From the NCBI GenBank assembly GCA_027486555.1, contig JAIXOX010000135.1:2802-66801 (forward strand): DNA of 64,000 nucleotides. The letters are read 5' to 3'. The notes below the pieces were generated by a model. That model worked only from the letters and a program-made list of their open reading frames with translations, was not told where the DNA came from and made no database searches. The translations under genes and the position numbers were made by a program. This document shows, one piece after another, positions 1-11,673 of the stretch. Each line of letters starts with the position of its first letter. The stretch's first letter is position 1. This DNA comes from Comamonadaceae bacterium. Lineage in GTDB: Bacteria; Pseudomonadota; Gammaproteobacteria; Burkholderiales; Burkholderiaceae_C.

Positions 1-18
1 GCGAAGCAGTCGTTCCAT
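1..18 (-). CDS. 5' fragment of a gene running off the window (MERLLR...), possibly AlpA-family regulator/excisionase
   Basis: AGGAG RBS (26-30, minus) 7 nt upstream of ATG at 18; MERLLR resembles AlpA N-termini; only 6 codons visible. Confidence 0.3.
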
Positions 19-29
19 GTGTTTTCTCC

Positions 30-743
30 TTAAATTTGTTCAGTTGTTGAAACCACAACCAGTTGAAGTCGTGGCGGGTTGGGAGAGGTTGCCTTCAACA
101 GCCCCGCCGACTTGAGCGCCAGCATCTTGTCAATGGTCCTCAGGTAATCACGGACATCCCGATTGCTGCCGGTGTATTTCTCCAGATTTTTGATGACCTC
201 CGCCAGCGTCATAACAACTCCCTCCTGCTGAAGGATGTACTGGGCACGGGGCGCAAATTCAGTTGGCGAAATCTGCGTGAATTCGTATTTGTCACAGCGT
301 GAGCGGACGGCTTTTTCAAACTTCATCGGGTCATTAGTCGTGAAAATCACCATCAATTGGTCCTTGTGATCGTCCATGAGCGTCCACAGGCGATTGAGGC
401 TATTTCTGTATTTGTCCAACTCATGAAACACCACTACACAGCGCTGGTGCTGTGAGTCACCAAACCAATGGATCGTGTTGGACAGATAGTTGCTGAGGTC
501 ATTACGACCAAGAAATTTCTCAATGGTGTCTTGAATGAACAGGCAAGAATTCCCGGTAAGTACTTTGGCAACCAGATTGGCGATGGTCGATTTTCCATTT
601 CCGTTTGAGCCATAAAGCATCAAATTGTCACAGGAATATCCTCCCGAAACAATCGCTTTTATAAAAAACTCAGTGTCCGGGTCATTGAAAACTACATCAT
701 TGATGGTCTGCGGGGCATACTTGATCTCGGTGCGAATGGTCAT
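30..743 (-). CDS. Clamp-loader-like (RFC small subunit / T4 gp44 / DnaX N-terminal type) AAA+ ATPase
   Basis: N-terminal KYAPQTINDVV, Walker A GSNGNGKST, degenerate Walker B VVVFHELD, sensor-1 FTTN, SRC motif AVRSRCDKYEF. Confidence 0.8.
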   Translation of the reverse strand: MTIRTEIKYAPQTINDVVFNDPDTEFFIKAIVSGGYSCDNLMLYGSNGNGKSTIANLVAKVLTGNSCLFIQDTIEKFLGRNDLSNYLSNTIHWFGDSQHQRCVVVFHELDKYRNSLNRLWTLMDDHKDQLMVIFTTNDPMKFEKAVRSRCDKYEFTQISPTEFAPRAQYILQQEGVVMTLAEVIKNLEKYTGSNRDVRDYLRTIDKMLALKSAGLLKATSPNPPRLQLVVVSTTEQI

Positions 744-769: not shown

Positions 770-799
770 GGCACACATGGCAGCATTGCCCTGTGTGCC
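770..799. other. Intercistronic stem-loop between the 259-aa gene and the ATPase
   Basis: GGCACACA-t-GGCA-gcat-TGCC-c-TGTGTGCC; no clear U-tract on the minus strand. Confidence 0.5.
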
Positions 800-806
800 A
801 TATTGA

Positions 807-1586
807 TCAGGCTGCTTTGAGTTCCAGTTCTTCGGCGGACTGGATGAACTTTTCGGCTTCGGCATTCAGTTGGCTCTTCTCATCATTGGTGGCCTTCCAT
901 GTTCGGGCGGCGCTACGAACCAGCGATTTGTAAACGCCCGTTTCGATACCCTCAACAACACAGACGATCTTGAATTCGCCGTTCAAGCCGGGCTGGGTAA
1001 TCAGGGCACTGATCTTTTGCGAGTTGTAGCCCGTGATGGTCAAGGAAGCCAAAGGCTTGTTGTTGCGCTGGTCGATCACAGCGTTGAGTTTTGCCACCGT
1101 CGCTTCCAGTTCTTGACGCTTCGCCTTTTTCTCTTTACTCTCTTTGGTCAAATGGGTAACGCCATCAATGCCATGGTTCTCACGAAGCCAGACAGCAAGT
1201 TCGGTCGGTTTCACATTGAACTTCTTGGCGACCTCAACTGCCTTTTGGTAGCAGAGCACTCGCTTACGGTCGCTCTTGAAGACATAACGGATCAACAAGC
1301 CCAAAACGCTGGAGTTGCTCTGAACACGAACCCCCGACTGGGTCAACTTGCTGGCGATTTCTTGGCGAAGTGCCAAGCGCTCCTCAGAGGTGCGATTGAT
1401 GAATGATTTTTCATAGAAACCATAGACTTTTCCGAGCAATCCATACAAGGCTTCGGTAGCAGTCTGGTAAAGTGTTTTTTCCCAAATATCACGCTCACCC
1501 GACAATTCCTCCAATTGCTCAATGGCTTTGTTGGTGTAGATCTGGATGGTCTTGGCGACCGTTTTGGGTTTATTGGCTGCTTTCAC
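807..1586 (-). CDS. Hypothetical protein, 259 aa, helical N-half
   Basis: Long ORF, GTG start with AGGAG 6 nt upstream, co-oriented with the ATPase; no motif recognised. Confidence 0.75.
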   Translation of the reverse strand: MKAANKPKTVAKTIQIYTNKAIEQLEELSGERDIWEKTLYQTATEALYGLLGKVYGFYEKSFINRTSEERLALRQEIASKLTQSGVRVQSNSSVLGLLIRYVFKSDRKRVLCYQKAVEVAKKFNVKPTELAVWLRENHGIDGVTHLTKESKEKKAKRQELEATVAKLNAVIDQRNNKPLASLTITGYNSQKISALITQPGLNGEFKIVCVVEGIETGVYKSLVRSAARTWKATNDEKSQLNAEAEKFIQSAEELELKAA

Positions 1587-1685: not shown

Positions 1686-2672
1686 ATGACTTCTATTGAT
1701 GCCAGCCAAATGATCTATTCATCAAACAATGACGAATACGAGAAGCCCCGTCAAAAGGGCATGGACCAGTTTGGGCATGCCACCATGGATGAAGAAGTTG
1801 CCGATGCCAGCAAAAGCATCCGGCGCTGGTGGTGGGAGTACTTAAGGCTAAGCAAGGACTACTGGCTCCTGTGCCAAACGACAAAGGGTGGCATTCCTGA
1901 GACTTATGATCAGCGATTGGCCCAGATCTATTGGGACTTCGGCAATGTCCACGACTGCTCGTTCGACGAGTGGTGGCGCCGGACAGGGTCTGAGTTGTTT
2001 AGAGAGCAGCGACTTCCGCCCCGTGTTCAGCAAATCACATCGGTTGAAAGTGCCATTTCAGGTGATCGGGCGGGGAAAATTCTTGTCGAGATTCCGCTTC
2101 AACTGAGCAAGGAAACGGTTCAAAAACAGATAAACGGCATTCTTGAGCTCTATCAGGACAAGCGGCCATCAAATCGGTTGGAAACCAGCACCTCTCGATA
2201 TCCGATCAATGTCACCTTGGCCCGTTTGAATGTGCTCCAGAAGTCACATGAGGTGTTCTGCCTTCACCGTGAATTAATTGCTAAACCAGCGGCTATGTTG
2301 AAGTCAAATAGAAGCCGTTTAGACATAGAGTTTCAAGAGCGGGCAGACCTTTTCAAGATCGGCAAAGCACTTGGAATCAGTCCATCCAACGAGCGGCTGA
2401 CTGGCACGAAAGAAGAGATCGACCGCCGTGCCAACAGCATGAGACAGATGGTCTGGGTTCACATGAAAAGAGCCAAGGCGCTGATTGCCAATGTCGAGCA
2501 TGGTGTGTTCCCAGACGACGAAATGCCTGAGATGACACCACCTCGGTTTTCGACTAAGCAAGAAGCCCAACACAAGGAACTTGAGGCTCAGTGGTTGTCG
2601 TTGGACCTGTCGTCATCACTGAGTGAGAAAAAACTGGCTTTAGCACGAAGAATTCATTACGATGGCAATTAA
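1686..2672 (+). CDS. Putative FseA-like (DUF6499/DUF2285-type) transcriptional activator; start codon uncertain
   Basis: N-terminal WWWEYLRLSKDY resembles the WAWEFLRRNPDY motif; C-terminal HTH-like LFKIGKALGI...VWVHMKRAKALIANVEHG. ORF is solid, function is inferred. Confidence 0.55.
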   Translation: MTSIDASQMIYSSNNDEYEKPRQKGMDQFGHATMDEEVADASKSIRRWWWEYLRLSKDYWLLCQTTKGGIPETYDQRLAQIYWDFGNVHDCSFDEWWRRTGSELFREQRLPPRVQQITSVESAISGDRAGKILVEIPLQLSKETVQKQINGILELYQDKRPSNRLETSTSRYPINVTLARLNVLQKSHEVFCLHRELIAKPAAMLKSNRSRLDIEFQERADLFKIGKALGISPSNERLTGTKEEIDRRANSMRQMVWVHMKRAKALIANVEHGVFPDDEMPEMTPPRFSTKQEAQHKELEAQWLSLDLSSSLSEKKLALARRIHYDGN

Positions 2673-2741: not shown

Positions 2742-3842
2742 ATGGCTACGGAAGCAGAGAAAGAAAAATATCTTAGAAGCAAATCATATGCCCTGATCTA
2801 TTGGCACTCCAGTTACCAGCACCCTTTGAAGCACTTACATGATTTTCTTCTTAATGAACAAGATGAGTCTATTATCATTTCCGCTCGGTCTGAGGCTTTG
2901 ATATTTAATGATCTATATTACATCAATAGCAGTGTCGAACTTGAAAATCCTGTTTATGGAACGGCTGGAGCACTTTCTGGTAAATGTAGCAGATTAGATA
3001 TTTATTTTTGGCTTTGCTCATCGCCGATAAAGGATGTAAAAAAACTGCTAAGAAGCAATAAATCGGTCAGATCGATAATTTCTGAAATATTCAAATGCTA
3101 TAACGGCTCTATTAATGATTTTTCAACAGCCCTATTCCTGGTTGATATGAAAAATAAAAATGCTGAGGATTTGAATTTAATTTTTAAAGATTTTAAAATT
3201 TTACAGTGCTTAAAAATAGTTTGCGGAGGGGTGGAAGTTGTTTATGAATATTTACTTTCAAATTTCATATATGAAAATGAAAATCAATATGATATTTTAA
3301 GGGGCTCCCATCTCTTACATGATGAGAAAGGGGATGCCAAAATAAAAATATTCCCAGAATATCCTTCAAGTACAAAATCAAGTGAAGTATATTTTTCTCC
3401 CATTTACCAATTTTCGAAAAATACCGATTTATTTCATCTCACACCTCAAAAAATGGAGGAATATTATGATGATTATGGTTTTTCATATACCAAGAAGGGA
3501 GGAAGTTATCCTTACTATAGATTGAAATTGAATTATGTAGAAAAGATTAATCATGAATTTATAATCCCCCAGAGAGTGTATGAAATCTTGACACAGGAGC
3601 AATTGGAGAAATTGGAGTCATCTGCTGCTGACACATTGGATCGTTTTTTAATCTTTATATTCGATAATGTATTTGGATACCGTTATAAAGATATTACCTC
3701 CAGTAATGTAGAAACCATTGTATCAAACGGAAAGTGCTGGAATAATGATATGTATGAGATACTTGGCGGCGATGGGAGTGACTCTGTATATCTTGGAGAT
3801 GGTTTGTCAATTGATAAAAATGGAAATATTGTTGATGATTAA
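2742..3842 (+). CDS. Hypothetical AT-rich protein, 366 aa, with acidic Gly/Asp-rich C-terminal motif
   Basis: GAGGAG RBS at 2731-2736; ~30% GC (18/60 in the line at 3121); ends YEILGGDGSDSVYLGDGLSIDKNGNIVDD. Confidence 0.8.
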   Translation: MATEAEKEKYLRSKSYALIYWHSSYQHPLKHLHDFLLNEQDESIIISARSEALIFNDLYYINSSVELENPVYGTAGALSGKCSRLDIYFWLCSSPIKDVKKLLRSNKSVRSIISEIFKCYNGSINDFSTALFLVDMKNKNAEDLNLIFKDFKILQCLKIVCGGVEVVYEYLLSNFIYENENQYDILRGSHLLHDEKGDAKIKIFPEYPSSTKSSEVYFSPIYQFSKNTDLFHLTPQKMEEYYDDYGFSYTKKGGSYPYYRLKLNYVEKINHEFIIPQRVYEILTQEQLEKLESSAADTLDRFLIFIFDNVFGYRYKDITSSNVETIVSNGKCWNNDMYEILGGDGSDSVYLGDGLSIDKNGNIVDD

Positions 3843-4012
3843 ATTTAAGTAGGAATTAAAGATTTAAAAAATTACTTGAGGATATTTAATTTCCCCCACT
3901 TTGATGAATCTTAATAAATTAGGCCAACCATCGAAATCGATTTTTACGGATTCTATAGTTGGCCAGTTGAGTGAATTCACGTGAAATAGTTTTACTTAAA
4001 AAAAAATTCTAT

Positions 4013-5446
4013 CTATTCCTGACTCGCAATGAAAAGATTATCTTTGGCTCTTGTGAGTGCGACATAGTTAAGCCTAGCGTCATTTCTCAATAACCAATCA
4101 TCACCTCGACTTAGGTTGACTAGGGCAGCATTAGATACACCCATTCCTTTAGATGTATGTATGGTTTGAACATAAACTTTAGTGTCGGTTGATAAAACAT
4201 CCTGACGGTGACGAAAATGTGGTACATTCATTGCCGCCAATCCACGCGATATTTTTTCACAAGTCGCTCTTGTAGGCGCCATTACAAGCCATTCTTCGTC
4301 TTTTTTACTCTCGATTATTCTCATCAATTCACGTAAAGTTAAAGGGCGAGTTTGCTTTTGAGATTGATTGGTTTTGTCATTGTTATCTAGCAATACTTTG
4401 TTTATAACGCGACCATCATTATTGGAATTTGGATTGTCCGTCCATATCTTTTTCTTTCTTGAATTATAAGAATCAAGATTGATATTGTTATCAACAAATA
4501 ATTTAATATTTTTAGGAATTCTCCATGATATAGATAGCACTTCATCAGGCAGTGTTGTTGGAAATTCATTAAATAATTTTGGCGAAGCACCGAATGACTC
4601 CATAATTGCTTGATCATCGTCCCCACCAAGGATTGTCTCTTTCGCATTAGTTGCTAGTTTTTTTACTACATCCCACTGTAAGGCGCTTAGATCCTGTGCT
4701 TCATCAATAATTAGCAATTCAAACGTTGGTATTTTTTCTTTTGGAAATGTTTCTTTGGCAACTGAGAAGATCACGTCGTTGAAGTCAGCCAAATTATTTT
4801 TTTCTTTGAAATACTCATATTCTTTGTAATATTTTTGAGCAAACTCTTCAACTTCACCATCAAGAATTTTCCTCTTATAATAATTACCAAGGAGCATTTG
4901 GGCATCACTAAATGACTTTCCAAAAAATTCTGGAGAATCTCTTTTCTTATTAAACATGATGCTGTATTCGCTTAGCACTGGATGTATTGGCCTAACGACA
5001 ACACTGGTTGGATCTCCGGCTCGTAACCACTCCTCTCTAGCACCAATATTAAGATCGAATTTCTGTAAATGCTCTTTTTGACATAGTTGCTTTCCCTCTG
5101 TGCCACCCATTCTAGTTGTCAAACTGTGTAGAGTTGAAAAATTAGTGAATCTTGATGTGGGTATTTTTAATTTTTCAGATATTTTGTCTCTTGCCTCATC
5201 GGCAGCAATATTTGTAAAAGCAAAATAACCAATATTTTCCGGCATAATGCCATGATTAATTGCTTCTGTCGCAATTCTCACAAGTTCTGAAGTCTTTCCT
5301 GTTCCTGGTGGACCATATATTCTTCTGCTTGTTTGAAATTCCCAATTAATTCCCAAGGGAAAGTCAGAAGAAAATGTCTTTTCCATTGAATCTTGAAGGT
5401 TCATTTTGTGATTTCTAGTTGGTGTGGCTTTAATGAATATTTTCAA
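4013..5446 (-). CDS. Compact superfamily-1 UvrD/Rep-like helicase lacking most of the 2B domain
   Basis: Motifs I GPPGTGKT, Ia FAFTNIAA, STLHS, DFND, II DEAQD, III GDDDQAI, IV SWR, V TIHTSKG, VI YVALTRAK; TTG start with GGGAG 7 nt upstream; ~32% GC. Confidence 0.9.
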   Translation of the reverse strand: MKIFIKATPTRNHKMNLQDSMEKTFSSDFPLGINWEFQTSRRIYGPPGTGKTSELVRIATEAINHGIMPENIGYFAFTNIAADEARDKISEKLKIPTSRFTNFSTLHSLTTRMGGTEGKQLCQKEHLQKFDLNIGAREEWLRAGDPTSVVVRPIHPVLSEYSIMFNKKRDSPEFFGKSFSDAQMLLGNYYKRKILDGEVEEFAQKYYKEYEYFKEKNNLADFNDVIFSVAKETFPKEKIPTFELLIIDEAQDLSALQWDVVKKLATNAKETILGGDDDQAIMESFGASPKLFNEFPTTLPDEVLSISWRIPKNIKLFVDNNINLDSYNSRKKKIWTDNPNSNNDGRVINKVLLDNNDKTNQSQKQTRPLTLRELMRIIESKKDEEWLVMAPTRATCEKISRGLAAMNVPHFRHRQDVLSTDTKVYVQTIHTSKGMGVSNAALVNLSRGDDWLLRNDARLNYVALTRAKDNLFIASQE

Positions 5447-5524: not shown

Positions 5525-6724
5525 CTATAGCACTAATTTATTCATAAATTGGGACCAGTCCTCCATCAGCGTCCGGCGCTTCTCTAGGTAGTCTCCACGC
5601 TGATAGGCTGCTTCGGTCTGATCAGCCAGCGAGTGGGCCAGTGATTGTTCGATCACCTCGCGGCTGTGCCCGGTTGTCTCGCCTGCCCAGTCACGGAACG
5701 AAGAGCGGAAGCCATGAACGGTATATTGCTTGAAGCCCAATGTACCCTTTAGATAGTTGCTCATTGCCATGTTCGACAAGGGCTTGCCTTTGCCTCGACT
5801 GTCGAACACCCACGGCGAACCTTCGATTCGATTGATCGATTTCAGAACTTCAATCGCCTGATCTGACAGCGGCACCCTGTGCTCACGACCCTTTTTCATT
5901 CGTTCTTTCGGGATCGTCCAAATCGCCTTGTCAAAGTCGAACTCTTCCCACTTCGCTTCAATCGTCTCGCTGGTTCTGGTCGCTGTCAAAACACACAGGA
6001 GCAAGGCTTTTGCCGACAACACTGGCGTGATACCAATCGTCTGAAATAACGCCGGGATCTGAGCGTACGGCATCGCGGCATGGTGCTTGACTCGCTGACG
6101 CTTGCTGATTGACGGCAGCAAGTGAGCCAACTTGCCTTTCCATATTGCTGGGTTGTCGCCTGTTCTGTGCCCTGACACAACAGCCCAGTCCATGATGCTT
6201 TCAATACGACCTCTGAGCCGTGTTGCCGTCTCGTTCTTTGTTGTCCAGATTGGCTTGAGAATTTCCAGCACCTGCTCAGTCGTTACCTCTGAACATGCCA
6301 AATAACCTATGACCGGATTGGCATAGGTTGTGATCGTGTTCGTCCACTGATCAGCGTGTTTAGCGTTTCGCCAGCCGTGTCGCTTTGTCTCAATGTAAAT
6401 TTGGGCGGCTCGTTGAAAAGTCATGACATCACTGGCAGCGGCAGCCGCCGCCTGAATCTTGCTTCGTTCAACTCGGGGATCACCACCTTGACGAACCAGT
6501 CTGTGGTGTTGAACTGCCGTATCCCTTGCTTCGGCCAGAGAGACATCCCTGAGCGGACCCAGACCAATCGTGTTCTTGCCGCCAGCACCCCAGCGAAAGA
6601 TCCAACTCTTGTTTGGCTGGCTCGGGTCGGGTGAAGTCTGAACCTTGAGGTACAGCCCGCCACCGTCAGCGTGAAGGCCGACCGTCTTAATTGACCTGAT
6701 TGAAAGCGCTGTTAGTTTGCCCAT
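5525..6724 (-). CDS. P4-like tyrosine integrase with N-terminal arm-DNA-binding domain
   Basis: ADGGGLYLKV N-terminus; catalytic residues TATRTSE (R), MK, HGFRSSFRDW (HxxR), SLAH, AAYQR (Y). Confidence 0.95.
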   Translation of the reverse strand: MGKLTALSIRSIKTVGLHADGGGLYLKVQTSPDPSQPNKSWIFRWGAGGKNTIGLGPLRDVSLAEARDTAVQHHRLVRQGGDPRVERSKIQAAAAAASDVMTFQRAAQIYIETKRHGWRNAKHADQWTNTITTYANPVIGYLACSEVTTEQVLEILKPIWTTKNETATRLRGRIESIMDWAVVSGHRTGDNPAIWKGKLAHLLPSISKRQRVKHHAAMPYAQIPALFQTIGITPVLSAKALLLCVLTATRTSETIEAKWEEFDFDKAIWTIPKERMKKGREHRVPLSDQAIEVLKSINRIEGSPWVFDSRGKGKPLSNMAMSNYLKGTLGFKQYTVHGFRSSFRDWAGETTGHSREVIEQSLAHSLADQTEAAYQRGDYLEKRRTLMEDWSQFMNKLVL

Positions 6725-6836: not shown

Positions 6837-6905
6837 TGTATAGAGTAAATTTGATTTATTGGTTGCTATTGAACAGCGCTGGACAACATAGTAGAATGAC
6901 GCCTG

Positions 6906-6913
6906 CTCCGCCA
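6906..6913 (+). other. Possible att core: displaced tRNA 3' end (CTCC-G-CCA, Ser-like discriminator G)
   Basis: CTCCGCCA lies 5 nt before a bidirectional terminator and ~180 bp from int; no complete tRNA upstream; only 8 nt, so weak on its own. Confidence 0.4.
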
Positions 6914-6918
6914 GAAAG

Positions 6919-6950
6919 AAAAAAAGCCTGCACATGTGCAGGCTTTTTTT
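6919..6950. terminator. Bidirectional intrinsic terminator
   Basis: Perfect 32-bp palindrome A7-GCCTGCACATGTGCAGGC-T7. Confidence 0.85.
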
Positions 6951-6958
6951 CGTCTTGA

Positions 6959-7015
6959 CTTGCCCTGTCATGGATTGACCAAGACAGGGCAAGATCGCCG
7001 ATTTAATCGGCGATC
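6959..7015. repeat. Two further tandem hairpins 3' of livK
   Basis: CTTGCCCTGTC/GACAGGGCAAG (6959-6993) and GATCGCCGATT-t-AATCGGCGATC (6993-7015). Confidence 0.7.
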
Positions 7016-7023
7016 AATGCAAA

Positions 7024-8193
7024 TCAGCGAACCACAGCGATCTGTGAACGCTCGCCACCTTTGTAGGTGTAAATGGTCAAAGCGCCATTCTTCACATCGC
7101 CTTTTTCGTCAAAGGAAATGTCGCCGGTCACGCCTTTGTAAGTGATGCTCTTGAGAGCAGGCAGGTACTTGGCTGGATCAGCGGAGCCTGCGTTGACCAT
7201 GGCTGTGGCCATGATTTTGACAGCGTCGTAAACGTAAGGAGCGTACACCTGGACGTCCGCGTTGTACTTGGCCTTGAAGTCTGCGCGGAACTTGTCCATG
7301 CCCACTTTTTGCTCGCCTTCAACGCCACCGGCTTCAGCGCAAACCACAGCTTCGTCTTTCATGGCGTCGCCAGCCAGTTTGGCCAATTCAGCGGTGCAGA
7401 TGCCATCGCCACCCATGAACTTGGCTTGAATGCCCAAGGACTTCATTTGACGCAACATCGGGCCAGCCACAGCATCCATGCCGCCGAAAAACACGACGTC
7501 GGGCTTCTTGGCCTTCAAGGTGGTCAGGATAGAGTTGAAGTCAGAGGCTTTGTCGGTGGTGAATTCATGACCAACGATGGTGCCACCAGCAGCAGTAACG
7601 CTCTTTTTGAACTCTTCGGCCACACCTTGGCCGTAAGCGGTGCGGTCATCGATCACGGCGATGTTTTTGCCCTTGAGCGTCTCAACGGCGTATTTACCGA
7701 GTGTGCCGCCCAAATGGACGTCGTCAGCCACCACGCGGAACGCACCGGCGTAACCTTGGCGTGTGTACTTGGGGTTGGTGGCCGATGGTGAAATTTGAGG
7801 AATGCCCGCAGTGTTGTAAATCTGTGAAGCAGGAATGGTGGTACCGGAGTTCAGGTGACCGATCACGCCATTGACTTTGGCGTCCACCAGTTTCTGGGCA
7901 GCAGCAGTGCCCTGCTTGGGATCAGCTGCGTCATCTTCAGCCAGCAATTCGAACTTGACGGCTTTATCGCCGATCTTCAGGCCAGCAGCATTGAGCTCTT
8001 CGATGGCCATGCGAGCGCCATTTTCGTTGTCTTTGCCCAAGTGGGCGATTGCGCCACTGACAGGGCCTACGTGACCAATTTTGATCACTTGAACGTCAGC
8101 CACGGGGGCTTCTTTTTTACCGCAAGCTGCCAAGGCAACAGCGGCAACAGCAACAGCCACAACGGTCAAAGTACGATTACCAGAAAATGTCAT
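7024..8193 (-). CDS. livK: Branched-chain amino acid ABC transporter substrate-binding lipoprotein
   Basis: Lipobox LAAC, KIGHVGPVSG, GHLNSG, DRTAYGQG and YDAV motifs. Confidence 0.9.
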   Translation of the reverse strand: MTFSGNRTLTVVAVAVAAVALAACGKKEAPVADVQVIKIGHVGPVSGAIAHLGKDNENGARMAIEELNAAGLKIGDKAVKFELLAEDDAADPKQGTAAAQKLVDAKVNGVIGHLNSGTTIPASQIYNTAGIPQISPSATNPKYTRQGYAGAFRVVADDVHLGGTLGKYAVETLKGKNIAVIDDRTAYGQGVAEEFKKSVTAAGGTIVGHEFTTDKASDFNSILTTLKAKKPDVVFFGGMDAVAGPMLRQMKSLGIQAKFMGGDGICTAELAKLAGDAMKDEAVVCAEAGGVEGEQKVGMDKFRADFKAKYNADVQVYAPYVYDAVKIMATAMVNAGSADPAKYLPALKSITYKGVTGDISFDEKGDVKNGALTIYTYKGGERSQIAVVR

Positions 8194-8298: not shown

Positions 8299-8574
8299 CT
8301 AAAGCGGTCTATTTTGGTAACTTTCGCTGCGCTTGCGCCAGAGTTCTTGAAGGGTTTGTTGCACCAATTGCGCCGTCATGCGGTCCAACTCGGGCCGCAG
8401 ATTCTGAATCAGCACGCCAGACAGATCGAGCAGCGCTTGTTTTTCTGCCATCCTGGCATCTAAAGCCAGTTGCAGTGCGGTCGGGAAAGAGTCAGGTTGA
8501 AGGCGGTCAGTGAGCAAAGGAATTGGCCCAAGGTGCGGATGTGTGGCGTTTTTTTCAGTGCTGCCTTCGCTCAT
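8299..8574 (-). CDS. Small hypothetical protein coupled to holC
   Basis: 4-nt overlap with the holC stop; IPLLTD motif then an amphipathic helix. Confidence 0.55.
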   Translation of the reverse strand: MSEGSTEKNATHPHLGPIPLLTDRLQPDSFPTALQLALDARMAEKQALLDLSGVLIQNLRPELDRMTAQLVQQTLQELWRKRSESYQNRPL

Positions 8575-9005
8575 GTTTCAGCCTTTTTTGAAAGATCGTG
8601 CTGTTCCAGATCAAACCCTTGAGCTTTGTAATGTTTCCACCGATGACGCGCCTCGGAGAGGCCATGCTCATCCTTGGCAACGACTTCTATCAATCGTTCA
8701 AATCGCTCAAATGCTGGAGGCACTTGGTCACCGAGATTGATCAGAACGGTCAAATCGTGTCTTTGCAAGGCCTGTTCGCCCAAGAACAAGGCGCTGGCTT
8801 GCTGCACCAAGGGTGGGTCATCCGAGGTGCAATGCGCCAAAAATTCAGTCTCAGAAAACGACCAAAGTGCTTGATCCAAGCGTTGCAGAGTGCTGGCTTC
8901 ACCGAGCACAGCCACTCGAAATCCTTGCAACCGCGCCTTGCGCAATAAGCGGCTGGTGTAAATCAAACGTTCTTGGGTATTGAAATGGAATTCAATGCGC
9001 GTCAT
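8571..9005 (-). CDS. holC: DNA polymerase III subunit chi
   Basis: MTRIEFHFN start at 9005, LDQALWSFSETEFLAH, INL, RLIEVV, ARHRWKHY; adjacent to pepA. Confidence 0.9.
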   Translation of the reverse strand: MTRIEFHFNTQERLIYTSRLLRKARLQGFRVAVLGEASTLQRLDQALWSFSETEFLAHCTSDDPPLVQQASALFLGEQALQRHDLTVLINLGDQVPPAFERFERLIEVVAKDEHGLSEARHRWKHYKAQGFDLEQHDLSKKAET

Positions 9006-10566: not shown

Positions 10567-11673
10567 ATGTTATTCCATTCCACCCTGCGCAAAGACCTTG
10601 CGCGCAATTTTGGTGCTGCGCTGGTCATTCTGGTGACCATTGTGATGACCATCACTTTGATCCGGACGCTTGGCCAAGCCAGTCGAGGCAGCGTCAACCC
10701 TTCTGACGTGGTGTTGGTCATGAGCCTGAGCGTATTGGGGCAAATGACGACCATTGCCACTTTGAGTTTGTTCATCACCGTGGTTGCCACCTTGTCGCGC
10801 ATGTATGCAGACAGTGAAATGGTGATCTGGTTTTCAAGTGGGCGAGGCCTGGGCAACTTCATTTGGCCCCTTTTCCGATTCACTTGGCCCATTTTGACCA
10901 TGATTGCCATGCTGGCATTGTTCATTTGGCCTTGGAGCAACCAGCAAGTAGAAGACCTCAAGCAACGCTTTGAGAAACGCAATGACGTTGAGCGCATTGC
11001 ACCCGGTCAGTTTCAAGAGTCAGCGGGAGGCAATCGGGTCTTTTTTATCGACAAGGACAGCCCTGGACAACAATGGGGCAACAACGTTTTTGTTTCAAGT
11101 CGTGATGGCAGCACGGAAAGTGTCACCACCGCCACCCAAGGACGCATAGAACGGGTGGGACCTGACCGATTTTTGCTGCTTGAAAAAGGACAGCAATGGT
11201 GGACGAATTTGGTCAGTGGCGAAACCCGTTTGACTCAATTTGAAAAATACCAGTTGCTGATTGACTCTGACGCAGTGGTGGCAGGCGATCGCAGCAACAG
11301 TCGATTGAAGTCCACGCTTGAATTGATGCGGGACTTTACGCCCACTCACCAAGGCGAGCTGTCTTGGCGTCTGGGCTTGAGTCTTGCGGGCATCAATTTG
11401 GTTTTGATCGCTTTGGCCATGTCTGCAGTCAATCCCAGAGCAGGGCGCAGCTACCACCTGGGTTTGGCTTTGTTTGTCTTTATCGCTTACTACAACTTGC
11501 TGAGTGTGGGGCAAAACTGGATTGCAAATGGGCGGGTAGGCTTTGGCTCTTTCATGGTTCAACTGCATGGCGGGATGTTGCTCTTGGCCTGCATATGGCT
11601 GGCTTTGCGGCACATGAATTGGACTTGGCGAAGCTTGTGGCGTCGTGTTGCGCCGACAGGAGGTGCCGCATGA
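10567..11673 (+). CDS. lptF: LPS export ABC transporter permease LptF
   Basis: Divergent from pepA, six-TM pattern, DSEMVIWFSSG, ELSWRLG. Confidence 0.9.
   Translation: MLFHSTLRKDLARNFGAALVILVTIVMTITLIRTLGQASRGSVNPSDVVLVMSLSVLGQMTTIATLSLFITVVATLSRMYADSEMVIWFSSGRGLGNFIWPLFRFTWPILTMIAMLALFIWPWSNQQVEDLKQRFEKRNDVERIAPGQFQESAGGNRVFFIDKDSPGQQWGNNVFVSSRDGSTESVTTATQGRIERVGPDRFLLLEKGQQWWTNLVSGETRLTQFEKYQLLIDSDAVVAGDRSNSRLKSTLELMRDFTPTHQGELSWRLGLSLAGINLVLIALAMSAVNPRAGRSYHLGLALFVFIAYYNLLSVGQNWIANGRVGFGSFMVQLHGGMLLLACIWLALRHMNWTWRSLWRRVAPTGGAA

Follow-up and report, generated by a model that had tools for sequence, protein, structure and literature searches.

What can a clamp-loader-type ATPase do when it has neither the domain by which clamp loaders assemble nor the aspartate of the Walker B motif? 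The question is raised by a gene (positions 30-743, minus strand, ATG start) at the left edge of a 64,000-nucleotide stretch of DNA from a Comamonadaceae bacterium (contig JAIXOX010000135.1 of assembly GCA_027486555.1), referred to below as the window. The original prediction for this gene was a stand-alone clamp-loader-like ATPase with a histidine in place of the Walker B aspartate. The open reading frame list, motif mapping and family searches identify its product as a 237-residue AAA+ ATPase of the RFC/gp44 type without a collar, and sequence comparison places it in a previously undescribed family of short (~230-240 residues) clamp-loader-clade proteins that consist of an AAA+ module (ATPase domain and lid) and a proline-rich tail only. 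The family has histidine or asparagine at the Walker B aspartate almost throughout, and its gene travels with two others, encoding proteins of 259 and 328 residues (p259 and p328). The three genes, termed the trio below, form the backbone of small chromosomal islands. No description of the ATPase family, of p259 and p328, or of the 23-bp palindromes of these islands was found in literature searches.

An RFC-like AAA+ module

The Walker A motif GSNGNGKST occupies residues 45-53 of the ATPase (nucleotides 585-611) and the Walker B stretch VVVFHELD residues 103-110 (nucleotides 414-437), with His107 encoded by CAT at 425-423 and Glu108 at 422-420 on the minus strand; the sensor-1 residue Asn137 is encoded at 333-335, the SRC motif at 294-302 and the sensor-2 sequence D-V-R at 150-158. 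The protein is matched by the Pfam family AAA (1.1e-12) and, over residues 6-203, by PHROG 168, 'clamp loader of DNA polymerase' (2.2e-25). A profile built from 48 family members found the Pyrococcus RFC small subunit (1iqp, 7e-19) as its top match in the PDB, with T4 gp44 (4e-17) and yeast and human RFC2-5 among the further matches, and the prediction of a clamp-loader-like AAA+ protein with Walker A, sensor-1 and SRC motifs was thereby borne out. The printed PDB alignments set His107 against the first aspartate of 'LDEAD' in RFC and of 'IDEFD' in gp44, and Glu108 against the catalytic glutamate, which together with the codon reading confirms the predicted substitution; they also equate 'TTN' of the ATPase with sensor 1, 'SRC' with the SRC arginine-finger motif and 'DVR' with the sensor-2 motif 'GDMR'/'PDFR'. 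The RFC-type boxes that mark the clamp-loader clade (an N-terminal KYRP-like box, the P-loop, sensor 1 and a GDxR sensor 2) are all present, so that the ATPase has in common with RFC small subunits and gp44 the KYxP box, the P-loop, the catalytic glutamate, the fourth-position aspartate of DExD, the sensor-1 asparagine, the SRC motif and a sensor-2 motif of the GDxR type.

The alignment with RFC ends near residue 203, equivalent to residue 206 of 327 in RFC, and the ~35 residues that follow comprise the end of the lid helix, a proline-rich linker and a short tail. Because the match stops at this point, the collar, the domain that assembles the clamp-loader pentamer, is wholly absent; the prediction that most of it is lacking was right about the loss and understated its extent. 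RFC small subunits and gp44, which are housekeeping or phage-encoded proteins, reach ~320 residues with their collars, whereas the ATPase has 237 residues and is encoded by chromosomal islands. Nearly all of its 91 relatives in a collection of 5.8 billion proteins are 230-240 residues long. Two attributes of a functional clamp-loader subunit are missing from the ATPase, namely the C-terminal helical collar and a Walker B motif hhhhDE with its Mg-coordinating aspartate. In an alignment of 48 family members, all sequences have G45, G48, K51, E108, T135/T136, S148-R149-C150, D196 and R198 and almost all have N137 and D110, and SRC is kept in 89 of the 91 relatives.

The family alignment marks the C-terminal tail beyond the proline-rich linker (PRLQLVVVSTTEQI; 33-74, minus strand) as a candidate docking peptide. 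It reads PQLVVVS..EQI in the window and [KQ]-P-x-L-[TS]-[VI]-[AV]-K-COOH in other clades of the family. The peptide could be a docking element on a flexible linker; alternatively, it may form a strand that docks onto the sheet of p259.

Members of the family are currently mislabelled in databases. The JGI pipeline calls them RarA or DnaX (also HolB), and these labels were rejected as mis-annotations on the NCBIfam scores: the DnaX, RFC and HolB models all fall far below their cut-offs (dnaX_nterm 49.6 bits against 250; among weak HolB matches, holB 26.6 bits against 180.6), and no RarA model is among the best 25 NCBIfam families for the ATPase. RarA/MgsA and DnaX gamma/tau do belong to the same AAA+ clade; RarA is a protein of ~440 residues with an oligomerisation domain and the canonical D-E.

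The nearest functional ideas for the ATPase would appear to be the non-catalytic, SRC-bearing subunits of clamp loaders and the short AAA+ regulators that resemble Hda. E. coli delta-prime (HolB) and the E-position subunit of RFC have a degenerate catalytic site and still offer their SRC arginine finger to a neighbour. These subunits have collars and sit in a pentamer, in contrast to the collar-less ATPase, and delta-prime has lost nucleotide binding, whereas the ATPase keeps the P-loop, the catalytic glutamate and both sensors. Hda consists of the AAA+ module only (~230-250 residues), with a terminal clamp-binding peptide and an arginine finger that acts in trans, a logic in line with the one put forward in the original prediction. 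The ATPase resembles it in size and in its AAA+-only build, and the terminal peptide of the ATPase, which is C-terminal, is only loosely like QL[SD]LF. However, the ATPase is of the clamp-loader clade and Hda of the DnaA/initiator clade, and the Pfam and NCBIfam matches listed for the ATPase include neither Hda nor DnaA families.

The Walker B position

The residue at the Walker B aspartate position was assessed in ~150 homologues, comprising the 91 database proteins and 64 distinct proteins from 80 further loci in genomes and metagenomes. The database proteins have histidine in 61 cases, asparagine in 27, glutamate in three and aspartate in none, while the locus proteins have histidine in 41 (28 CAT, 13 CAC), asparagine in 19 (12 AAC, seven AAT), glutamate in three and aspartate in one. 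The original prediction had raised the question of whether H-E is conserved in homologues: the glutamate is kept, and the histidine is shared with asparagine and, rarely, glutamate. Nor is the substitution a decay mutation private to the window, since the homologues keep histidine or asparagine and have aspartate once. An acidic residue was seen at L102 (2039-2746), L097, L098 and L099, where the motif reads FDEFD in one protein and [FL]EEFD in three (two FEEFD, one LEEFD), a revertant-like condition.

At least nine interchanges among histidine, asparagine and glutamate at this position are implied by a neighbour-joining tree, and the aspartate codon GAY differs by one base from both CAY and AAY. 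An aspartate that is one base away and yet almost never fixed indicates selection for a residue other than aspartate, which points to histidine or asparagine as a selected trait of the family and not a product of decay. Among 30 distant phage homologues in IMG/VR (22-29% identity), 26 have D-E. N-E stands at the Walker B position ('ILNEVH') in one distant clamp-loader homologue of phage origin, on an IMG/VR contig (L035, ~8403-8999).

A standard for these substitutions is provided by deep mutagenesis of T4 gp44, in which Asp107 and Glu108 of DEFD accept no substitution, D107E included, and Asp110 accepts only aspartate or glutamate (PMC8121543). The island family retains Glu108 and aspartate or glutamate at position 110, but not the Walker B aspartate. 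The missing residue is one that cannot be replaced in gp44 (PMC8121543), and the ATPase therefore does not have a motor site that works as in gp44; nor is the site dead, since its other catalytic residues are all kept unchanged, whereas a site out of catalytic use should have drifted. The earlier suggestion that the protein may bind ATP without normal hydrolysis is plausible, and the strict conservation of the glutamate, sensor 1, the arginine finger and sensor 2 argues for a working, probably tuned, ATP site over a dead one.

The loss of both the collar and the Walker B aspartate might suggest that a phage clamp-loader gene has decayed to a remnant without function. This explanation is scarcely credible, being contradicted by conservation: the ~150 homologues, at 30-95% identity, are full-length with intact motifs, their histidine and asparagine codons have turned over synonymously, their length is conserved and their gene order is fixed. 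The family instead represents a natural and long-conserved replacement of the Walker B aspartate by histidine or asparagine within the clamp-loader clade, with the other catalytic elements retained, and it offers a ready-made test both of the role of the Walker B carboxylate and of what a clamp-loader module does without a collar.

An operon and its divergent neighbour

The neighbourhood of the ATPase gene was compared first in 16 loci and then in 72 more, the counts that follow being of loci with enough sequence. In 62 of 65 loci the ATPase gene is directly preceded by a co-oriented homologue of p259, and in 49 of 52 the gene beyond p259 is p328-like and on the opposite strand, so that the description of the ATPase as 'stand-alone' has to be abandoned. 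The linkage persists down to ~30% identity of the ATPase. In the window, p259 (807-1586, minus strand) has a largely helical fold that includes a small sheet of three strands, and its sequence contains the invariant motif LLIRYVFKSDRKRV, and the divergent p328 (1686-2672, plus strand), an all-helical protein with the tryptophan-rich N-terminal motif RRWWWEYLRLSKDYW, is a candidate regulator of the operon.

Downstream of the ATPase gene, the start of an AlpA-like gene (1-18, minus strand; ATG at 18-16, MERLLR...) was recognised from close relatives. Six of its codons are within the window, beyond the left end of which it extends; it begins 11 nucleotides past the ATPase stop codon, with a ribosome-binding site AAGGAG at 31-26, and because only those 11 nucleotides separate the two genes it is assigned to the same operon. 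Its orthologue at L003 matches Pfam Phage_AlpA (2.3e-6). The context further to the left was read from close relatives, identical proteins being present only on 2.5-kb contigs: a 63-residue AlpA is followed by small open reading frames, with no clamp or loader genes, so the clamp-loader set that might have lain just left of the window is not seen there. AlpA was considered as a fixed member of the operon and rejected, as the gene downstream of the ATPase varies by clade and is alpA in the window clade only. The arrangement is therefore an operon of p259 and the ATPase, the latter being the second cistron, with alpA third in the window clade and p328 divergent.

In agreement with the original prediction that no clamp or partner subunit is nearby, no gene for a sliding clamp or an A-position subunit was found within 8-10 kb of the ATPase gene at ~86 related loci by Pfam marks, BLAST or hidden Markov models, which is the third point, after the collar and the Walker B aspartate, by which the ATPase departs from a functional clamp-loader subunit. 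RFC small subunits and gp44 differ from the ATPase in this respect, as they do from its histidine or asparagine Walker B and its orphan 259-residue partner. It is conceivable that the ATPase may use the beta clamp of the host.

Neither partner resembles a characterised protein. The p259 family comprises 919 clusters at 50% identity (E <= 0.001), but comparison of p259 and p328 with Pfam, PHROGs, NCBIfam and PADLOC gave no usable annotation, a Pfam scan of 62 members of the p259 family gave scattered single matches only, and sequence profiles of both proteins found nothing in the PDB better than E = 0.013. AlphaFold2 models were obtained for p259 (predicted local distance difference test, pLDDT, 74) and p328 (pLDDT 84.5, predicted template modelling score 0.80). 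Foldseek found no match to either model in the PDB at E <= 0.001, and none to p259 in BFVD; as far as its model can tell, p259 resembles no clamp chain (PCNA, gp45), gp62 or delta in the PDB. In IMG/VR, no close relative of the ATPase, p259 or p328 was found, the matches of the ATPase being phage clamp loaders at 22-29% identity only.

The start codons of p259 and p328 are separated by a divergent control region of 99 bp (1587-1685) with three GTCGGC/GCCGAC boxes (1602-1610, 1637-1642 and 1666-1674) that are invariant within the window clade. At L005, this region of ~100 bp is duplicated (11441-11544) ahead of a second alpA-like gene. Within the operon, a stem-loop (GGCACACA.GGCA / TGCC.TGTGTGCC, with a loop of four nucleotides; 770-800, minus strand) stands directly past the p259 stop codon, between p259 and the ATPase gene. 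Of 58 distinct loci, 28 have a hairpin in this position, with unrelated stem sequences; that structure and not sequence has been kept suggests an RNA-level element that sets the ratio of p259 to ATPase. In three lake metatranscriptomes, p328 and the promoter region (~1490-2530) are covered by contigs, and almost nothing of p259 and the ATPase gene is; the contigs come from variants that are 90-97% identical, which makes them weak evidence, and they would suit a p328 that is produced constitutively and regulates a largely silent operon.

These features could be taken to mean that p259 and the ATPase are a regulatory ATP switch with no role in replication: a nucleotide-gated sensor or anti-repressor directed against p328, or a co-activator of excision or late genes, with AlpA as its output in the window clade. 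The coupling of the operon to alpA in that clade, the operator boxes common to the second alpA, the transcription of p328 while the operon looks silent, and a histidine or asparagine Walker B that suits a slow, switch-like ATPase (contrast gp44, PMC8121543) would all be accommodated. However, AlpA follows the ATPase in one clade only, the downstream gene being unrelated elsewhere, and no recognisable DNA-binding domain was detected by Pfam in the ATPase, p259 or p328. A further point against such a switch is that transcription regulators are not known among AAA+ proteins of the clamp-loader clade. It is an unlikely explanation, although one that deserves to be taken seriously.

Islands at tRNA and tmRNA genes

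The islands that carry the trio are 10-20 kb in size and are found at tRNA or tmRNA genes of freshwater Betaproteobacteria, with swappable integrases and defence-type cargo; genome records name Limnohabitans, Polynucleobacter, Ca. Methylopumilus/Methylophilaceae and Zwartia as hosts. The 10.5-kb island of Limnohabitans sp. Jir72 (L009), which has an integrase and the trio, is flanked by direct repeats of 22 bp that are identical to the 3' end of tRNA-Ser(gga). The window has the same core in an attachment-site-like sequence (TCTGGCGGAGCAGGCG; 6900-6915, minus strand) beside a P4-type tyrosine integrase (5525-6724, minus strand; domains Arm-DNA-bind_3, Phage_int_M and Phage_integrase), and its chromosomal side shows synteny with L009. 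Because of the core, the integrase and this synteny, the window is understood to hold the right-hand 6.9 kb of an island, with the ATPase gene at the cut. Islands of other clades adjoin tRNA-Phe, tRNA-Met or tmRNA and have a tyrosine integrase of 404 residues or a serine recombinase of 562 residues. With three types of integrase, the trio is located between the integrase gene and a gene for a small tyrosine recombinase.

The trio and integrase have a host-like G+C content (0.50-0.57), and the slots between them are AT-rich (0.30-0.39) with contents that differ from island to island. The slot in the window (2742-5446) holds a 366-residue protein (2742-3842, plus strand) and a UvrD/GajB-like superfamily 1 helicase (4013-5446, minus strand); cargo elsewhere includes type I restriction-modification at L014 and a PIF1-like helicase at L015. 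Between syntenic islands the cargo is replaced and the trio retained, and the trio is thus an invariant module of the island backbone and not cargo.

The UvrD-type helicase of the window (477 residues) has a DRT-associated helicase (4e-27) and GajB (3e-19) as its top matches in PADLOC, and neither GajA nor a reverse transcriptase was found near it. Together with the 366-residue protein it may constitute a defence system of two genes. Polynucleobacter islands (L007, L008) contain a homologue of the helicase (31% identity).

The defence-type cargo is one reason to consider interference as the function of the ATPase, which might cap or mimic a subunit of a gp44-type clamp loader of phages or the DnaX clamp loader of the host, alone or with p259, by donating its SRC arginine or blocking the clamp. 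The ATPase is nearer to RFC/gp44 than to bacterial gamma/tau, the islands carry a UvrD/GajB-like helicase, type I restriction-modification and a PIF1 helicase, and the Walker B change would be lethal in a real gp44 (PMC8121543). However, the collar by which the ATPase could enter a pentamer is missing, the trio has the behaviour of backbone and not of variable cargo, no close relatives of its proteins are found in IMG/VR, and simple mimicry leaves the strict linkage of p259 and p328 unexplained. PADLOC returned only weak, generic AAA matches for the ATPase (the best, IetA at 5e-5, being confined to the P-loop region and below significance) and none for p259 and p328. Poisoning of a host or phage clamp loader, which the original prediction had proposed, is made harder by the missing collar and receives no positive support; interference of either kind is judged quite improbable.

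As integrative elements, the islands have an integrase at one end, tRNA-derived repeats, a small conserved module and replaceable cargo, but not genes for replication or packaging. No primase, helicase, Rep, relaxase or capsid gene was found in the island backbone, helicases being confined to the variable cargo. Phage-inducible chromosomal islands (PICIs) and tycheposons have an integrase at one end and a small replication module of 2-4 kb (10.1101/2020.12.28.424599). The modules of PICIs, P4-like elements and tycheposons share with the present islands a tRNA-targeting integrase as neighbour, a divergent regulator, an AlpA-type gene and variable slots for cargo or defence; they encode primases, helicases or Rep, whereas the island module consists of p328, p259 and the RFC-like ATPase only. 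A 190-residue protein with an HFH motif at L009 (13829-14401, minus strand) was considered as an HUH Rep and dropped, having no Pfam match and occurring at a single locus. It adjoins a small serine resolvase near the tRNA end.

The trio represents a conserved backbone, made up of three orphan genes, of small islands integrated at tRNA genes in some of the most abundant freshwater bacteria, and these islands shuttle defence and other cargo in Limnohabitans, Polynucleobacter and Methylopumilus. The island system around the ATPase is possibly more novel than the ATPase itself.

Palindromes and a small tyrosine recombinase

A 23-bp palindrome, AAGCGTC-NN-GTWAC-NN-GACGCTT, occurs in ~175 copies in 735 kb of sequence against ~8 expected (all spacings), and the spacing is exactly nine in almost all copies. 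In 63 loci a copy lies 10-21 nucleotides past the ATPase stop codon, and another lies just beyond the stop codon of the p328-like gene, so that the trio is bracketed; more copies flank the integrase gene or a restriction-modification module. At the loci inspected, all copies are on the island side of the adjoining tRNA or tmRNA gene. Carriers of the palindrome include L011, L012, L014, L015, L057, L073, L077, L080 and L082. The sole copy in the window (AGCGTC-N9-GACGCT; 2682-2702) is terminator-like and lies 10 nucleotides past the p328 stop codon, where the block conserved with L009 and L005 ends. The palindrome was rejected as a genome-wide repetitive extragenic palindromic element or uptake sequence, as the 64-kb window contains one copy and that copy is inside the island.

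The ends of homology blocks between islands lie within 25 nucleotides of the centre of a palindrome with 6.6 times the frequency of random positions. A cassette insertion between two palindromes is seen when L073 is compared with L077, and an integrase module inverted at palindromes when L011 and L012 are compared with L014. The palindromes may be sites of recombination or shared terminators.

Adjoining the trio in at least 55 loci is a gene for a tyrosine recombinase of 188-200 residues, a catalytic domain by itself in which the set R-K-HxxR-H-Y is complete; examples are L014 (10744-11310, minus strand), L006 (7710-8276, plus strand), L010 (11268-11870, minus strand) and L015 (7509-8075, plus strand). 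The window-clade homologue of this recombinase is a truncated form without HxxR and the tyrosine (L003, 4203-4709, minus strand; L009, 11785-12324, minus strand), and palindromes are rare in that clade, yet the trio is 78-95% conserved and His107 is kept. That the trio is intact where the recombinase is truncated and palindromes are rare argues for an ATPase that is independent of the palindrome and recombinase system.

This apparent independence bears on the proposal that the trio helps the small recombinase to exchange cassettes at the palindromes, for instance by remodelling or loading on folded sites in the manner of MuB, TnsC or IstB. The palindromes bracket the trio, are numerous and enriched at block ends, and are the places at which cassettes have been inserted and the integrase module inverted, while the recombinase retains its catalytic residues at so many loci. 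The intact trio of the window clade stands against this proposal, as does the consideration that the palindromes may be mere shared terminators, and we know of no tyrosine recombinase that needs an AAA+ partner. MuB, TnsC, TniB and IstB are, like the ATPase, small collar-less AAA+ proteins encoded beside the recombinase of a mobile element, but they are of other AAA+ clades and serve DDE transposases, and the ATPase has no Pfam match to the IstB or TniB families. A role as helper in cassette exchange is considered rather improbable.

A possible role on island DNA

The reading that is tentatively preferred, although it falls somewhat short of being probable, is that the ATPase and p259 act together on island DNA after induction, the ATPase as an ATP-dependent switch or loader. 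Because the P-loop, the glutamate, the sensors and the trans-acting arginine are conserved, the ATPase is predicted to assemble into an ATP-bound oligomer in which the arginine finger would act in trans; because it has no collar, p259 would probably be needed to replace the collar as scaffold. The histidine or asparagine would slow ATP turnover or make it conditional, as would suit a switch or loader and not a fast motor. Once the operon controlled by p328 is switched on, p259 and the ATPase would act on island DNA, and their most likely job would be to recruit a part of the host replisome, such as the beta clamp or a helicase, so that replication of the excised island is initiated or assisted. 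Replication is put forward by analogy with other small islands, because the trio occupies the place of the regulation and replication module in elements of the PICI, P4 and tycheposon types; the helper of an excised element's replication that was mentioned in the original prediction would fit this backbone position.

Several observations weigh against replication of the excised island by p259 and the ATPase. The backbone is without primase, helicase, polymerase or clamp, and the replication and excision of the island are themselves putative. The vicinity of the trio has weak two-copy repeats only and no origin-like iterons. The resemblance of the C-terminal peptide to the beta-clamp-binding consensus is loose, with lysine as often as glutamine in its first position. 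The roles assigned to p259 and p328 are guesses, because these proteins have no detectable relatives of known function. The data on transcription come solely from contigs of related variants, and all loci were retrieved by searching with the ATPase itself, so that its presence in such islands is a biased count.

A broader proposal combines loading by p259 and the ATPase with the palindromes. The trio might be the engine of a new type of modular island, in which p259 as collar and the histidine or asparagine ATPase would together form a loader specific for DNA structure at the palindromes or an origin (placing, for example, the host beta clamp or helicase onto folded or nicked island DNA), while the small recombinase would exchange cassettes at the same palindromes. 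The islands would then be a platform like integrons or pdif modules in genome-streamlined freshwater bacteria. This combination is regarded as fairly unlikely.

The chromosomal flank

To the right of the island in the window is a chromosomal gene (7024-8193, minus strand) with a very high word depth, 220-430, in the three lake metatranscriptomes. Near the island end, Rfam gave sub-threshold leader-like and terminator-like matches only, those of the leader type at a terminator-like hairpin (~6917-6999) that follows the gene. The end of the island is immediately downstream of this hairpin.

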